Source: a virus (Duplodnaviria; Heunggongvirae; Uroviricota; Caudoviricetes). Taken from it: a DNA stretch of 37,894 nucleotides. Numbering within the stretch: the first letter of the stretch is position 1; each line of letters starts with the position of its first letter. This document shows positions 1-37,894 of this stretch, in pieces. Both the position numbers and the translations under genes were made by a program. A model generated the notes under the pieces. The model saw only the letters and a list, made by a program, of their open reading frames with translations, did not search any database and was not told the DNA's origin. Location of the stretch: IMG/VR virus record IMGVR_UViG_2606217109_000004, one strand, 5' to 3'.

Positions 1-1152
1 TCAATCTGTCAATGCAACACCCCTTTCAATTATCTCTTTCGGTGTTTTGAACTTCAGTGTCTTTCTCGGTCTGTTGTTTAGCTGAGCAGCAACCAGATCT
101 AGTTCATGTTGAGTATATTGGGCAAGACATGTCTTTTTAGGAAAGTACTGCCGAATTAGCCCATTTGTGTTCTCATTTGTTCCCCGCTGCCAAGGACTCT
201 GAGGATCGCAGAAGTAAACTTTAACGCCGGTGCTGACAGTAAATTCTAGATGTCTGGCCAGTTCCATTCCTCTGTCCCATGTCAGTGATTTTCTGAGTTC
301 TGACGGTAAACTCAGGAATTTGTCGGTAAGAGCCTGATTTACTGAGACAGAATCTTTGCCCCTGAGTCTAAGGATGATCGTATAACGTGATTTTCGGTCT
401 ACAAGTGTGGCTATATGAGAGTTTTTTGTACCTGAGACTAAATCGCCCTCCCAATGTCCCAGAGAGCGTCTGTTATCGATATTTCGGGAACGTTCGTGAA
501 TTGGTGTTCCGTTCACTATGTTAATCGTACCTCTTTCGCCTTTGCGGGTATGACGCCTGCCATGGCGAAGGCTATGCGACCGTCGCAGATGCTGTATATT
601 CAGGTGGTGTAGCGCTTCACGGCTACGAAAGTACAGCGTTTTATAAATTGTCTCAGGTGATATTCGCAGCGTTTTTTGACGTGGTTTTGTTCGCCTTAAC
701 CATCCTGATATTTGCTCTGGAGACCATTTCATCTCCAGCTTTTCCAGAACAAGCTTTCGCAATGGTAAATTTTGATCCAGTAAGCACGGTTTTGGCCTTT
801 TCGCCATTCTGTTGGCTCGGTTATTAGCATCAACAGCTTTGTAATAGCGTCTGCCCCGATTACGCTGAACTTCACGTGAGATCGTCGAAGGACTGCGATT
901 CAGCGCAGTAGCTATCGCACGAATGCTCATTTTGGCTGACAAACCAGCTCGTATCTCCTCGCGCTCAGACAGTGTCAGGTGAGCTACAGCCCGCTTACGC
1001 TCATGGGGTTTTATGCCGCCAGTATCCCTTAACATAGTGAAGATCGTTCCGGGTTTTGAACCCAGGATATTCGCTATTTCACTGAAGCCTGTTCCGTTCT
1101 TCCATAGTTCAAAAACAGAGGCTTTTTCCTCTGCTGTAAATGTTCGTCTCAT
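1..1152 (-). CDS. insI: IS30 transposase
   Basis: 383-aa ORF with N-terminal HTH and C-terminal DDE-type region; translation recognised as IS30 InsI. Confidence 0.92.
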   Translation of the reverse strand: MRRTFTAEEKASVFELWKNGTGFSEIANILGSKPGTIFTMLRDTGGIKPHERKRAVAHLTLSEREEIRAGLSAKMSIRAIATALNRSPSTISREVQRNRGRRYYKAVDANNRANRMAKRPKPCLLDQNLPLRKLVLEKLEMKWSPEQISGWLRRTKPRQKTLRISPETIYKTLYFRSREALHHLNIQHLRRSHSLRHGRRHTRKGERGTINIVNGTPIHERSRNIDNRRSLGHWEGDLVSGTKNSHIATLVDRKSRYTIILRLRGKDSVSVNQALTDKFLSLPSELRKSLTWDRGMELARHLEFTVSTGVKVYFCDPQSPWQRGTNENTNGLIRQYFPKKTCLAQYTQHELDLVAAQLNNRPRKTLKFKTPKEIIERGVALTD

Positions 1153-6301: not shown

Positions 6302-7384
6302 TTAGAACTGGTAAACCATACCTACAGCAACGATATCATCGGTAGCAACGCCAGATGCTTTCGTGAAATCGCTCTTATCAATCAGGTTGATTTTGTAATC
6401 AACAAAAGTGGACATATTTTTGTTGAAGTAATAGGTTGCACCTACATCAATATATTCAACCAGGTCCTGATCACCCCACGCACCCAAGTCTTTTCCTTTA
6501 GATTGCAGGTAAGCAACGGACGGACGCAGACCGAAGTCGAACTGATATTGTGCAACTACTTCGAAGTTTTGTGCTTTGTTGGCAATATGGTTATTACCAA
6601 AAACAGTCATGTTCTGGGTTTCAGAATAGGTGGTAGCCAGATAGATGTTGTTCGCATCATATTTCAGACCAGCTGCCCATACTTCAGCATTTTGACCAGA
6701 TGCATTCAGGCTGTTGTTACCGTAGATAACCTGATTATTAGTGCGGTCAGATTTAGCATAGGTTGCACCTACACCGAATCCTTCATACTCATAAGTAGTG
6801 GAGAAACCGAAACCATCACCATTAGCTTCAGTTACGTCAGTGCGGTCATTTTTACCCTGATACTGAGCAGCAAAGTTCAGACCATCAACCAGACCAAAGA
6901 AGTCGTTGTTACGATAAGTTGCAACACCAGTGGTGCGACCAGTCATGAACACATCTGTTTGGGTCCAGGTATCGCCACCGAATTCTGGCAGAACGTCAGT
7001 CCACGCACCGATGTCGTATGCTACACCGTAGTTACGGCCGTAATCGATTGAGCCGTAGTCACCGAATTTCAGGCCTGCAAATGCAAGACGGGTTTTGTCT
7101 TTGGAGGAACCTTGAGATTCAGCGCGGTTGCCTTTGAATTCATATTCCCACTGACCGAAACCAGTCAGTTGATCGTTGATTTGGGTTTCACCTTTGAAGC
7201 CAAGACGGGCATAAGTAGTATCACCATCATCTGCATCATTAGAGGAGAAGTAGTGCTTAGCATTAACTTTCCCGTACAGATCCAGCTTGTTACTGTCTTT
7301 ATTATAAATTTCAGCTGCCTGAGCAGACATCGCCATCAGTACTGATGCAGCTACAGCAGAAATTGCCACTGTTAATTTTTTCAT
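6302..7384 (-). CDS. nmpC: Outer-membrane porin NmpC (OmpC/PhoE family), apparently intact
   Basis: Translation [23 protein letters not shown]|AEIYNKD... with signal peptide and C-terminal ...VYQF typical of general porins; start taken at MKKLT (7384). Confidence 0.9.
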
Positions 7385-7811
7385 CGTGAGCCCTTTTTTT
7401 GAACTATTATTAAAAAATGATGTCACTGCGCGATAAATATTCATCTAATCAATGTGATTATTTCAAGATGTAAGTTTTGGTTTCTCATTTGATTTGTGAA
7501 GTAGATCTCTATTTTTATCTGAACTTTTTCTATCGAATCCTATTCATGGCTCTTGGCTGAATAAAAATAAATCTATTAGCCAATTTATATTAATGGCTGT
7601 TATTTATAAGTGCTCTATAATTTGAAGGTTCAATTTAAATCGGCTAAAAATAACGCTGGAAATTATTTGTTGGTTATTTGTTGAGATTTGCTTATGTATT
7701 TGTAGTGGTGTTTTCAATACTCGGTAGCATTCTCGCAAATATCATTTAGTGGTTTACGTACGTAAAAAATTGGTTATGCTGTTAAGAGTGGTTACTTCGT
7801 CACACAGCTTA

Positions 7812-33800: not shown

Positions 33801-34291
33801 ACGGCATTAAATCGCATACCCACAGCGCCAGCGCATCCAGTACGGATTTGGGGACGAAAACCACATCGTCGTTTGATTACGGCACTAAATCCACGAATAA
33901 CACTGGTGCGCATACCCATAGTTTAAGTGGCAGCACGAATGCAGCTGGTAATCACAGCCATAGAGATGGCCGTCGATTTAACCCCAGTGTTTTTAAAGAT
34001 ACTTATCAATATGGTTATACAAGCTCAGGTCAAAATACCTGGGGTGTACAAGGCTCAGTAGGTATGTCTACGGGGTGGTTAGCTAATACCAGTACAGATG
34101 GTAATCATAGCCACTCACTGTCCGGCACAGCAGCATCTGCAGGTGCACACGCGCATACTGTCGGTATTGGTGCTCATACGCACTCCGTTGCGATTGGTTC
34201 ACATGGACACACCATCACCGTTAACGCTGCTGGTAACGCGGAAAACACCGTCAAAAACATCGCATTTAACTATATTGTGAGGCTTGCATAA
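30887..34291 (+). CDS. stf: Side tail fibre protein Stf, enlarged mosaic form
   Basis: N-terminus ([29 protein letters not shown]...) and C-terminal His-rich receptor-binding region match lambda Stf; central part is a long Ala/Ser/Thr-rich repeat tract plus a divergent lower-GC domain. Confidence 0.9.
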
Positions 34292-34872
34292 TGGCATTCA
34301 GAATGAGTGAACAACCACGGACCATAAAAATTTATAATCTGCTGGCCGGAACTAATGAATTTATTGGTGAAGGTGACGCATATATTCCGCCTCATACAGG
34401 TCTGCCAGCAAACAGTACCGATATTGCACCGCCAGATATTCCGGCTGGCTTTGTGGCTGTTTTCAACAGTGATGAGGCATCGTGGCATCTCGTTGAAGAT
34501 CATCGGGGAAAAACCGTCTATGACGTGGCTTCCGGCGACGCGTTATTTATTTCTGAACTTGGCTCGTTACCGGAAAATGTCACCTGGTTATCGCCGGAAG
34601 GGGAATATCAGAAGTGGAACGGCACAGCCTGGGTGAAGGATACGGAAGCAGAAAAACTGTTCCGGATCCGGGAGGCGGAAGAAACAAAAAACAACCTGAT
34701 GCAGGTAGCCAGTGAGCATATTGCGCCACTTCAGGATGCTGCAGATCTGGAAATCGCAACGGAGGAAGAAAACTCGTTGCTGGAATCCTGGAAAAAGTAT
34801 CGGGTGTTGCTGAACCGTGTTAATACAACAACTGCACCGGATATTGAATGGCCAGTAGCACCTATAGGGTAA
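34291..34872 (+). CDS. tfa: Tail fibre assembly protein Tfa
   Basis: 193-aa translation matches lambda Tfa ([37 protein letters not shown]...). Confidence 0.9.
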
Positions 34873-34965
34873 ATTCGTAATGATTACCTAAATACGTTAT
34901 TCTTTTGTTCAAAAAGTGATTTTGCTATAGGTAAGGAGTATGTTCTTGGATTAAGAATAAAAAAT

Positions 34966-34988
34966 CGCCATGAAAGAGCTTCATGGCG
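34966..34988 (-). terminator. Rho-independent terminator for a leftward transcript coming from the AT-rich spacer
   Basis: Perfect 9-bp stem CGCCATGAA / TTCATGGCG with 5-nt loop; on the minus strand it is followed by ATTTTTTATT. Confidence 0.5.
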
Positions 34989-35731
34989 AGTACATAAACG
35001 TACAAAATGTGATGAAAGTAGAGTGGCGTAAGCCACTATATTAAGATATGACAATAGCGAAGAAAAGTAAATAACATTTTATGGACGTTTAATTGTTAAT
35101 TATAAAAACTAGAGTGCCCGATATTGTTTATCTTGCTTTAAAATAATGTACTCAAACCAAATTTTTGAGCTAAAAGCTCAAATAATATAAATGCAATGAT
35201 AATGTTTAATAAGACAATTAGCTTGCTTTGTATTTTCATTTCGGAATACTGTTAAGTAACTTTGATGACCCTAACAATAGATCGGAATTTTCTTAGAGTC
35301 AATGGTCACTGTTTTTGCTTGCAAAGCAAATGTTTTGGTGGTTATAAGTTGTCTTAATATAGTCACGCATGCAACTTGTTCCATGCGGAGATTAAAGATT
35401 GGAATATAACGCGAAGATGGAATTAAATTACATTTGCAATAATCAATTTATTATTACTCAATAATTACCGATATTATTATTGTAAATTAATCATTAGAGT
35501 GCAAAAAGAAATGTAACGGCAAAATAAGAGGACGATAGCTGAGAAAAAAGCGTGCTTTCCCAATCTGGGGCAAATCACGTCTGAATGACACCTGAAAACA
35601 GGTGGTAGCCTCAAGAAGGCTTGGAATATTCTTCTTTAATGTTATGTAATTCATTGATTTTTCGTGTACGATTTTAAGACATTTATTCCAAGAAAAATTT
35701 TTAACTCTTTGATTTTTAGACTCTGTATCAT

Positions 35732-35793
35732 CGGTCTCGAAAACCGGAGTGGGGGCAACTCTACCGGGGGTTCAAATCCCCCTCTCTCCGCCA
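35732..35793 (+). other. 3' fragment (anticodon loop to CCA) of a tRNA-Ser(CGA) gene: candidate att core / prophage boundary
   Basis: CGGTCTCGAAAACCGGAGTGGGGGCAACTCTACCGGGGGTTCAAATCCCCCTCTCTCCGCCA equals the 3' ~62 nt of E. coli serU-type tRNA-Ser as I remember it (one mismatch); the 5' half of the tRNA is absent and replaced by AT-rich DNA. Confidence 0.75.
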
Positions 35794-36377
35794 CTTTATC
35801 AATGACTTATCTCCCGACTTCCCGCCTTGCTTTTCCTAAACAGAACAATCGTAGAATATTCTTGAAGGGTTAGATCGTCACTGTTTTCTGTTCGATACTG
35901 TGACATTCAGCACTTGATTCGCTATGGATCTGACAGGAAGGTTTTGAGCGAAAATTTGCAGTTATTCAGTCGTTTTCTTATCGGTCACCATTATTCTTTT
36001 AGACATTGATCCTACAAAGCTGCCGCAAAGTTGGTGGTGGGAACTGAAGTTGCGTAGAGAAGGGGTCAATACCCGGAGGCAAACATGGGCTGGCAAAAGT
36101 GTAGCGGTATTAGGCGCAGCTATTTAGCCTAGTTATGTTTTATGAAAACTTGATATCATATAAGTGTCTTACTTATTGGCTGTAAATAAGTTTTTCCTAA
36201 GGAATTGTTTCTTGAGTATCATTTGTAACTGTAACGGAATTTATAATCCTTTGCTTTATTGTTACGGTATTTTTTATCACACCCTATTTTTTATGTGGTT
36301 TTTTATACTGAAGTTTGGCAAAGTGAACTTTATATGCATATACTTCATCCTGGTTTCAGTTAAGTTGGGTGGATGAT

Positions 36378-37121
36378 ATGGCAACTACATGTTCAGTTAT
36401 ATTGATTTTGGAGTCCTTTGATGTTTATTTCGGAAAAGAGAGTGTGTTTCTGGAGAGAGGTTCATCTGTACTTGTCGACTCTAGCTCTAGAGATTTTTTC
36501 CTGACATATCCTGAAAGAGTGATAGTGGCGGATTTTGGCGCTGAGTTTATTAGTCGCTATTTGAAAGCTAATAACTTAAGGGATATTTCTGATTGTAGGG
36601 AATATCCATCTTATTTAAAAATAAACTTTGCTGACTTCAGTTTAATTAAAGGATTAATTAGTTGGGCTAATCACTGTGCTGAATACATAGAAATTTTTGA
36701 TGAGTCTATTGCTTTTACATGTCTCTCTGCATTTTCTTCTGAAAAACAATTTGGAGTATTTCTGTTTGAATGTTTGAAAAGCACAGGGGCTAAAGTTAAA
36801 ACGATTATTCATACGGATTTATCTGCACCATGGCGTCTTAAGGATATATCATCAAGATTATATCTCAGCGAAAGTTTACTAAAGAGGAAATTGAAAGAAG
36901 AGGGGGTATCATTCAGTAAGATCATACTTGATGAGAGGATGCAAATGGCTGAATATTTACTCAGCACTCGTTGTTATCCTATTAGTAAAGTAGCTAAGGT
37001 CTGTGGTTATGCCAGTGTCTCATACTTTACTTATGTATTTAGACGTTATTTTGGTGTTTCTCCAAGTCAATACTCTCAGAGCAGTTCAGAAAGTAAAATT
37101 CTTACTCACCAGGGAATCTGA
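36378..37121 (+). CDS. AraC/XylS-family transcriptional regulator (AppY/YdeO/GadX-like subgroup), AT-rich acquired gene
   Basis: 247-aa ORF with C-terminal double-HTH AraC signature (...SKVAKVCGYASVSYFTYVFRRYFGVSPSQY); GGTGGA ribosome-binding site before ATG at 36378; GC well below the phage genes. Confidence 0.8.
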   Translation: MATTCSVILILESFDVYFGKESVFLERGSSVLVDSSSRDFFLTYPERVIVADFGAEFISRYLKANNLRDISDCREYPSYLKINFADFSLIKGLISWANHCAEYIEIFDESIAFTCLSAFSSEKQFGVFLFECLKSTGAKVKTIIHTDLSAPWRLKDISSRLYLSESLLKRKLKEEGVSFSKIILDERMQMAEYLLSTRCYPISKVAKVCGYASVSYFTYVFRRYFGVSPSQYSQSSSESKILTHQGI

Positions 37122-37630
37122 TCATTGTTCTTGCCCCCTTATTTCCAGACAGGGGGTGTATCTTAAGTTAACGTTACCCGCTGACGTCGATATTCTCGCG
37201 GAGAGCGATAACCCAGCGCACTGTGCGGATGGTTTTCATTGTAATGTTCGATCGCCACTGCAAGATTATGCAATGCCGTTCTTACATTCGGTTTCGGCAT
37301 GAACGCGGTGTAGTCTTCCTTCATCGTTTTCACGAACCTTTCTGCCATTCCATTACTCTGAGGACTGCTGATTGCCGTTGTGCAGGGCTCCAGATTCAAC
37401 TCTCTGGCGAACTGCCATGTTTCATGCGCTCTATACGCTGAACCGTTATCTGTCAGCCACTGGATGGACTGTTCCGGTACTTTATCGCCAAAGCGTTTTT
37501 CTATCGCTCCTAACATGACATCCTGCACTGTCGCTTTATCGTAACCTCCCGTGCTTGCGGCCCAGTCTATGGCTTCACGATCGCAACAGTCCAGGGCGAA
37601 CGTAACACGCAGTTTTGAATCGCCACGGGT
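37122..37630 (-). mobile_element. IS3-family (IS2-like) element fragment: terminal inverted repeat plus 3' part of the orfB transposase; 5' part missing
   Basis: Minus-strand frame open from about 37630 to stop at 37163 encodes ...[38 protein letters not shown]...WLTDNGSAY...[11 protein letters not shown]...[19 protein letters not shown] (second D and E of the DDE triad); IS2-like end TTGCCCCCTTATTTCCAGACA at 37128-37150. Confidence 0.7.
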
Positions 37631-37678
37631 TTAACAGACACCTCAGAGTCATTTAAGATGGCTTAAAGAGAGGTGCCC

Positions 37679-37894
37679 ATGAGCGGTAAGCGTTATCCCG
37701 AAGAGTTTAAAACTGAAGCAGTCAAACAGGTTGTTGATCGCGGTTATTCTGTTGCCAGCGTTGCAACACGTCTCGATATCACCACCCACAGCCTTTATGC
37801 CTGGATAAAGAAGTACGGTCCGGATTACTCCACTTTTTCATCAAGCCAATCCGCCCACCACTGCATCATTTCTCTGCGCTTATCGAGATACTGA
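37679..37894 (+). CDS. IS3-family transposase OrfA (HTH protein), second IS copy, possibly frameshifted; cut by window end
   Basis: Translation MSGKRYPEEFKTEAVKQVVDRGYSVASVATRLDITTHSLYAWIKKYGPD... is a typical IS3-family OrfA N-terminus; RBS AGAGGTG upstream; C-terminal 20 aa atypical. Confidence 0.65.
   Translation: MSGKRYPEEFKTEAVKQVVDRGYSVASVATRLDITTHSLYAWIKKYGPDYSTFSSSQSAHHCIISLRLSRY

Follow-up and report, generated by a model that had tools for sequence, protein, structure and literature searches.

The locus and its regulator gene

The window, that is, the whole stretch of 37,894 nucleotides analysed here, is a near-complete lambda-like prophage. An IS30 transposase gene at positions 1–1152 is followed by O, P, rusA, Q, an OmpC-type porin gene, the lysis genes, the terminase, head and tail genes and tfa. 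The porin gene is located between Q and the lysis genes, and J, lom and the side tail fibre gene stf are among the head and tail genes. Past tfa, fragments of phage, host and insertion-sequence (IS) DNA surround a single intact gene for an AraC/XylS regulator, which is called patE here on the grounds given below. The features are listed in Table 1.

Table 1. Features from the last structural gene of the prophage to the end of the window
Feature	Position	Strand	Description
tfa, tail fibre assembly gene	34291–34872	+	Last of the structural genes of the lambda-like prophage; its stop is followed by the accessory region
AT-rich spacer	34873–35608		No convincing gene; 31% GC; within the phage b region
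Right arm of a serU-integrating lambdoid prophage	35609–35731		Phage side of a fossil attR
serU tRNA-Ser(CGA), 3' 62 nt	35732–35793	+	Anticodon stem to CCA; att core of the fossil attR; from alignment with K-12 serU
yodB-serU intergenic core-genome DNA, 278 bp	35794–36071		Carried together with the serU fragment; alignment with K-12 stops at 36071
IS630-family right terminal 55 bp	36072–36126	+	Left breakpoint of the regulator segment
patE upstream region	36127–36377	+	30% GC; candidate promoter TTGGCA-18-TATACT at 36315–36344; GGTGGA 7 nt 5' of the ATG
patE	36378–37121	+	Intact gene for a 247-aa AraC/XylS regulator of the YdeO/GadW/AppY group; allele with E131 and S235
ISEc48 (IS3 family, IS2-like), truncated right end	37126–37616	-	Terminal inverted repeat and 3' part of the transposase gene, 491 bp
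Second IS3-family element, truncated	37617–37834	+	Left end and first ~50 codons of orfA; Pfam HTH_Tnp_1, E = 1.2e-14
IntS-type integrase gene, 3' fragment	37821–37894	-	Runs off the window end; 90–97% matches to the intS 3' end elsewhere

In the list of open reading frames, patE runs from an ATG at 36378 to a TGA at 37119–37121 and encodes 247 residues. This ATG was favoured over a GTG three codons 5' because the relatives of patE begin with MAT or MAI. In RefSeq, identical DNA in many E. coli genomes carries the same gene of 744 bp in its annotation. The GC content is 35.1% for the gene and 29.9% for the 251-bp upstream region, against 51.7% for the window; the adjoining IS fragment has 50.1%. 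The first-pass annotation had described an AT-rich islet here, and these values agree with it. The gene is also horizontally acquired, a property ascribed there to its family. The islet had been drawn as far as 37162, a position within the IS terminal repeat.

The promoter-like site in the upstream region is a consensus match only, and the scan yielded fewer such sites than shuffled sequences did. About 240 bp 5' of patE, this site included, are kept 5' of P0007 (L023), a relative with 84% identity. No RNA family was found in an Rfam search of the regulator segment, and its below-threshold matches (a weak tmRNA-like one and a plastid 3'-UTR) both fell on the serU fragment. ARAGORN found no complete tRNA in the window.

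Family membership and comparison with PatE

The protein possesses the C-terminal DNA-binding domain of about 100 residues with two helix-turn-helix motifs that characterises the AraC/XylS family. Both Pfam models of this domain exceeded their gathering scores, HTH_AraC with 60.7 bits (cut-off 26.6, E = 1.3e-16) and HTH_18 with 57.9 bits over residues 158–234 (cut-off 33.6, E = 1.3e-15). The nearest solved structure is the DNA-binding domain of GadX (3MKL, E = 2e-23). The first-pass annotation had recognised an AraC/XylS regulator of the AppY/YdeO type and had suggested BLASTP against several members of the family. In pairwise BLASTP, full-length alignments were obtained with YdeO (35%, E = 4e-48), GadW (33%, E = 3e-46) and AppY (29%, E = 4e-35), and those with GadX and EnvY were confined to the C-terminal half. 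The identities in the multiple alignment were 33% for YdeO, 33% for GadW, 28% for AppY and 36% for PsrA. Therefore, the assignment to this type was correct. The subgroup of YdeO, GadW, AppY, PatE and the Psr proteins is marked by full-length similarity and a size of about 240–255 residues, and the BLASTP alignments of the window protein span residues 1–233 or more. An N-terminal motif, M-x-x-x-C-S-V-I, is common to the subgroup, and its M1 and C5 are invariant in the multiple alignment.

At first pass the protein had also been set clearly apart from AppY and YdeO while its relationship to both was recognised, and this description is accurate. The best NCBIfam model was that of YdeO (NF007407), but its score of 148.8 bits is far below the cut-off of 348, and an identity as YdeO was rejected on this score and on the 33–35% identity. 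YdeO and GadW resemble PatE in full-length similarity (33–35%), CSVI motif and size. However, they are chromosomal genes in fixed loci, and the identity is too low for orthology. AppY, encoded by the DLP12 cryptic prophage of K-12 (b0564), is likewise a prophage-borne AraC regulator located just after tfa at the right end of its prophage. It differs from PatE by an identity of 28–29% and by unrelated DNA downstream of tfa: the homology to the K-12 DLP12 tfaX stops at the tfa stop, and K-12 then has appY. Orthology with AppY was thus rejected in spite of the analogous place. The EHEC prophage-encoded secretion regulators PsrA and PsrB belong to the same subgroup. PsrA (ecs1087, Sp4) is 36% identical to the window protein over a 237-aa ORF, and its gene is located downstream of the Q antiterminator gene beside tRNA genes, whereas patE here is located in the b region. 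PatE is an orthologue of none of these regulators but works in a similar way. YdeO, GadW and PatE act on gadE and the acid fitness island (PMC10877973, PMC10057817), AppY activates acid-resistance genes including gadE (PMC10057817), and PsrA and PsrB raise GadE and lower type III secretion, PsrB binding the hdeA promoter region that PatE binds (PMC10877973).

Apart from PatE alleles, the closest relatives are four proteins of 243–244 residues, namely P0007 (84%), P0011 (54%), and P0013 and P0016 (51% each). Their genes are located directly after Q and before a holin gene in lambdoid prophages. No functional study of these Q-to-holin relatives was found. P0013 and P0016 were considered as PsrA or PsrB and rejected, P0013 being only 47% identical to the Sakai PsrA; they form a separate unnamed group.

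The closest match is found in E. coli O157:H7. The window protein and ECs_0287 of strain Sakai are of equal length and identical in 245 of 247 residues. ECs_0287 is a 744-bp gene annotated as 'transcription regulator' in the thrW-integrated prophage Sp1, and an AraC-family gene of EDL933 (WP_000246059.1) has the same record coordinates. It is the only AraC-family gene in CP-933H/Sp1 (O-island 8) and the 15th gene after thrW, which is consistent with the tag z0321. PatE was reportedly named and characterised in EHEC in 2012, and its gene was reported by Bender et al. (2012) to lie in CP-933H. A 2024 review describes PatE as an AraC/XylS regulator encoded by z0321 on O-island 8 of EDL933 (PMC10877973). 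The same review names gadB, gadC, gadE and hdeAB as genes that PatE activates and places its action at hdeA between -132 and -45; it also reports that PatE is more highly expressed in stationary phase and reduces the expression of six LEE genes (PMC10877973). A further paper cites PatE and PsrB as AraC-type regulators from prophages that control the AR2 acid-resistance system (PMC10057817). From the review's 'z0321, OI-8', the island membership and the gene order after thrW, we infer, and strongly, that z0321 is this gene.

In the window protein, E131 replaces G131 of the O157 PatE, and S235 replaces R235. Both residues lie outside the HTH_18 match (158–234), and the HTH_18 region is the same as in the O157 PatE. 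G131 is conserved in the closer homologues and PsrA in the multiple alignment. Since E131 replaces a conserved glycine, the activity of this allele could differ.

The DNA surrounding the gene is shared as well. From 35732 to about 37598, the window is almost identical to the Sakai Sp1, from which it differs by a small number of substitutions and one 2-bp indel. Breakpoints identical to those of O157 delimit the serU fragment, the adjoining host DNA, the region 5' of patE and the ISEc48 end 4 nt after the stop codon. The common cassette begins exactly at the serU fragment, and the left flank 5' of it differs between the window and O157. In addition, the carrier is a near-complete lambda-like prophage here and a decayed thrW prophage in O157, and the ISEc48 remnant, which ends at 37616 in the window, ends about 18 bp earlier in Sakai. 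Taken together, the window ORF is very probably the orthologue of PatE, the prophage-encoded AraC-like acid-resistance activator described in EHEC O157:H7 EDL933. The regulator is already known, having been named and studied under this name. The first-pass annotation had considered that the ORF might prove nearly identical to a well-characterised core-genome regulator. The near-identity exists, but the partner is an accessory prophage gene and not part of the core genome.

The name also appears in a preprint in which a 'PatE' from E. coli Nissle, CIW80_12240, is overexpressed. This tag could not be mapped to patE, so the preprint was set aside as evidence. In the Nissle RefSeq annotation, CIW80_RS12240 is bcsZ, and gadW and gadX are about 17–18 tags (~25 kb) away.

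Flanking DNA, carrier prophage and distribution

The region upstream of patE is a mosaic. The tfa gene is annotated as 'tail fiber assembly protein' in matching genomes and phages. The spacer that follows is 99.2–99.6% identical in the phages PhiR70_1, ev099 and mEp332. Only one of its ORFs, of 55 aa (35487–35654, minus strand), is annotated, as hypothetical in ev099, and no NCBIfam match was obtained for it. The right end of the serU-integrated phage SerU-LTIIb matches the window at 94.8% over 35609–36071, and the record of this phage shows side tail fibre genes, a pseudo tRNA-Ser and yodB in this order. An upstream tRNA fragment had been noticed at first pass and is now recognised as the 3' 62 nt of serU. 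The adjoining DNA belongs to the host: 5423 of the 5426 complete E. coli genomes match 35731–36071, which is about 97% identical to the serU locus. The serU attR with its 278 bp of host DNA points to a capture by aberrant excision. The IS630-family end before the regulator segment rests on one short match of 55 bp (92.9%, E = 2e-11) to plasmid pJNE23-001_1, which takes in the final 34 bp of a transposase gene of the IS630 family and 22 bp past the gene.

On the downstream side, alignment with a full ISEc48 copy places the terminus of the element at 37126 (TGTTCTTGCCCCC...), only 4 nt (TCAT) past the patE stop. The 491-bp fragment is 96.6–98.8% identical to plasmid copies of ISEc48 up to the terminal nucleotide, and at the same offset the Sakai annotation reads 'ISEc48 Family: IS3 partial'. 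A terminal inverted repeat and a match to a DDE transposase gene, the marks of ISEc48 and the IS3 family, are thus present in fragment form; the Pfam rve_3 score of 59.9 bits is below the cut-off. IS2 itself was rejected, as NCBIfam IS2 TnpB scored 177.8 bits against a cut-off of 597. The IS2-like terminal repeat that had been reported to abut the regulator is therefore real and belongs to the IS3-family ISEc48. The remnant cannot transpose because only about one third of the element is left; orfA, its first transposase gene, and the left end are missing. The second IS3-family fragment is annotated as 'transposase, incomplete' in matching genomes, and a 208-bp match to it occurs widely on both chromosomes and plasmids of E. 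coli. In STEC409, this IS fragment is followed by a full intS.

The locus of the 84%-identical relative P0007 gives a view of the 3' side free of IS debris. Its homology to the window stops at the stop codon, and it then has an intrinsic, rho-independent terminator (GCCAGCATTATTGCTGG followed by T8) and a holin gene, whereas ISEc48 starts at that point in the window. The proposal that the 3' context of the regulator has been rearranged is supported by this comparison. The accompanying idea of a displaced downstream target gene is not supported: PatE acts in trans on gadE and hdeA, and its relatives precede phage lysis genes. No downstream target gene is implied, the published targets being distant host genes. 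The junction between the gene and the IS is old because it is common to O157, about 645 complete genomes and ev099. The IS debris is thus part of the phage genome and predates the split of these phages and the O157 prophage. The cuts in the ISEc48 remnant came later, at different points in the window and in Sakai.

The integration site was approached through identical DNA elsewhere, as the window ends before the att core. The sequence expected at the lambda site is ACTTTTTTATACTAA or similar. The window from 37100 to 37894 equals ev099 apart from two substitutions, and ev099 has the lambda att core GCTTTTTTATACTAA about 225 bp past the equivalent of the window end. In RM10410, an intS remnant is followed by the attR core and then ybhB, and in ev099, too, only a remnant precedes the att core. 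Therefore, the window prophage most likely sits at the lambda attachment site. The patE gene is located in the b region, after tfa and about 1 kb from the lambda att core. Collinearity of the window with the DLP12-like cryptic prophage of RM10410 was rejected, as only 34095–37894 is shared in a whole-window BLAST.

The cassette is widespread. The gene and its IS junction were found in 645 of 5426 complete E. coli genomes (~12%) from many hosts, and the version linked to the serU fragment in 542. More than 20 complete genomes are identical at the DNA level over the gene region, and the exact protein occurs on at least 1000 contigs. Among the genomes inspected outside O157, lambda-site prophages are complete-looking in 214-4 and Eco_24-2013 and decayed in RM10410 and Res13; SZQ1 has an Sp1-like prophage and STEC409 an IS1-rearranged copy. 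Sequenced phages contain it too. A 2.25-kb segment that begins at the tfa stop and ends 4 nt beyond the stop of patE is 99.2–99.6% identical in PhiR70_1, mEp332 and Lambda_ev099. The order in ev099 is tfa, patE, two transposase fragments, int and xis, with the att core between the fragments and int; in mEp332, tfa and patE are followed by the same two fragments and then by the end of the record. The presence of this segment in phage genome records means that it travels with the phage. Protein-cluster names and public annotation give only a generic 'AraC family transcriptional regulator'; thus, scans will keep flagging patE.

Proposed function, history and significance

If this copy behaves as described in the literature, PatE would be made from its own promoter, mainly in stationary phase. 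The C-terminal domain with its two helix-turn-helix motifs would bind AT-rich promoter DNA, the hdeA site lying between -132 and -45. Transcription of gadE, gadBC and hdeAB would be raised, in EHEC together with a lowering of the LEE, and lysogens would survive low pH better. The same activity is predicted for this allele in this host.

It is unlikely that the gene is PatE by descent only and is now silent or impaired cargo as a result of G131E, the loss of the terminator to the IS, or H-NS silencing of AT-rich DNA. The glutamate stands where the closer homologues and PsrA conserve glycine, ISEc48 occupies the place of the terminator of the 84% relative, the gene and its upstream region have only 30–35% GC, and frameshifted or truncated copies exist elsewhere, such as P0006 and partial cluster members. 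However, the ORF here is intact and of full length, and a decayed gene is difficult to reconcile with the exact protein on at least 1000 contigs, with the more than 20 complete genomes at 100% DNA identity over the gene region, or with the intact patE kept in phage genome records. The O157 PatE, which is reported to be active, also has the same IS junction.

A role of PatE mainly in phage functions (late genes or the lysis-lysogeny decision), with a secondary effect on acid resistance, is much less probable still. It would fit the location of the closest non-PatE relatives between Q and a holin gene, inside the late transcription unit, and that of PsrA downstream of the Q antiterminator gene in Sp4. 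However, the Q-to-holin interval is the usual position for accessory cargo in lambdoid phages and holds stx in Stx phages; in the window prophage it holds the porin gene. In addition, patE here is in the b region, which is dispensable in lambda. For PatE, PsrA/PsrB and AppY, the targets described in the literature are genes that belong to the acid fitness island of the host (PMC10877973, PMC10057817). A previously undescribed member of the AppY/YdeO group with a regulon of its own is hardly credible. Taken by themselves, the 28–35% identity to AppY, YdeO and GadW, the YdeO score in NCBIfam (148.8 bits against 348) and the generic annotation would suggest one, but the protein is 99% identical to the product of the EDL933/Sakai gene named PatE in the literature, with flanks in common. 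The reading as the orthologue of PatE is therefore preferred.

The history of the cassette can be reconstructed in outline. A regulator gene that is normally located between Q and a holin gene would have been transferred to the b region together with some 250 bp of the DNA 5' of it. This relocation, presumably IS-mediated, would have placed patE between the IS630-family end and ISEc48 with the loss of its own terminator. It is proposed because the relatives sit in the Q-to-holin interval, homology is kept 5' of the gene, and on the 3' side it goes no further than the stop codon. A relocation from that interval is likewise indicated by the IS630 and ISEc48 ends.

As a discovery the locus carries little weight because the regulator has already been named and characterised in EHEC. 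What is added to the knowledge of PatE is limited to how widely it is distributed, its presence in sequenced phages and the reconstructed cassette. PatE is not a peculiarity of O157: roughly one complete E. coli genome in eight carries it, with birds, livestock and people among the sources, and so do lambda-like phages that have been sequenced. The flanks are a clear worked example of the assembly of prophage cargo from att-site and IS debris. It is a tentative proposal, to which we give somewhat less than even weight, that lysogeny by a patE phage alone might raise the acid resistance of E. coli and that the cassette may record the assembly of such cargo. If so, commensal or laboratory E. coli would undergo a lysogenic conversion that favours passage of the host, and thereby of the phage, through the stomach.

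The fossil serU attachment site and its flanks

The window prophage harbours, internally, a fossil serU attR of another lambdoid prophage. The window prophage itself most likely uses the lambda site. The makeup of the fossil attR, in which host DNA follows the phage arm and the serU fragment, suggests an origin by aberrant-excision capture. The cassette was compared with Sp1, the thrW prophage of E. coli O157:H7 Sakai that also carries patE. The two share it only from the tRNA fragment's first base onward, and this starting point is a hint of att-core recombination. The patE segment's left breakpoint is an IS630-family end, assigned from a single short match (92.9%, E=2e-11).

The 736-bp spacer is conserved at more than 99% in three phage genomes, despite having no convincing gene. 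A 55-aa hypothetical ORF is annotated in the lambda-like phage ev099, equivalent to window 35487-35654 (-), and no NCBIfam match was obtained for it. A strong Rfam match to IS009 falls within tfa, at its 3′ end.

Coordinates of the features (window, unless another locus is named)
Feature	Position	Strand	Details
IS30-family transposase gene	1-1152	-	full-length; directly left of phage O gene
OmpC/NmpC-type porin gene	6302-7444	-	518 bits to OmpC subfamily model
Rfam family IS009 match	34634-34832	+	224.8 bits; gathering score 117
AT-rich spacer	34873-35608		31% GC
Fossil attR of serU-integrating lambdoid prophage	35609-36071		123-bp phage arm, 62-nt serU 3′ fragment, 278 bp host DNA toward yodB
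IS630-family element, last 55 bp	36072-36126
IntS-type integrase gene remnant	37821-37894	-	between IS debris and lambda att core
PatE-like regulator gene	L020 7283-8014; L013-L016 6001-6732 (related lambda-site prophages)		between Q and holin gene
psrA (ECs_1087)	L017 18678-19391 (Sakai)		annotated 195 aa; 237 aa with upstream extension of ORF
ISEc48 direct repeat	L012 642-656 and just beyond IS right end (plasmid pP136-4)

Related regulators and the Q-to-holin interval

Related lambda-site prophages encode a second regulator from PatE's subgroup, a protein of 243 aa with 51% identity to PatE. Its gene comes after those for a lipocalin and a YbgA-family protein. In Eco_24-2013, it is present together with patE in one prophage. 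No functional study of this regulator was found in the literature. In the window, a porin gene sits between Q and the lysis genes, where the relatives have the 243-aa regulator. K-12 DLP12 has nmpC at the equivalent position, and stx or PatE-like relatives occupy it in other phages.

The annotated start of Sakai psrA is probably too far downstream, because the extended ORF begins with MVVVCSVI, the N-terminal motif common to the whole subgroup.

Insertion sequences and the prophage ends

The complete ISEc48 on pP136-4 is bordered in the alignment by a 15-bp direct repeat, GATGTGGAGTTTAAT. Target duplications of 3-5 bp are expected for the IS3 family, and the repeat exceeds this length. At the left end, where the window begins at the IS30 gene, the immunity and early-left region of the prophage may be interrupted or missing, since the transposase gene lies directly left of O. 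At the right end, the intS remnant has a full counterpart in STEC409 (L010 10654-11811), where intS adjoins the same IS fragment beside a tRNA-Arg gene. This arrangement suggests that DNA was once exchanged with a tRNA-Arg-integrated element.
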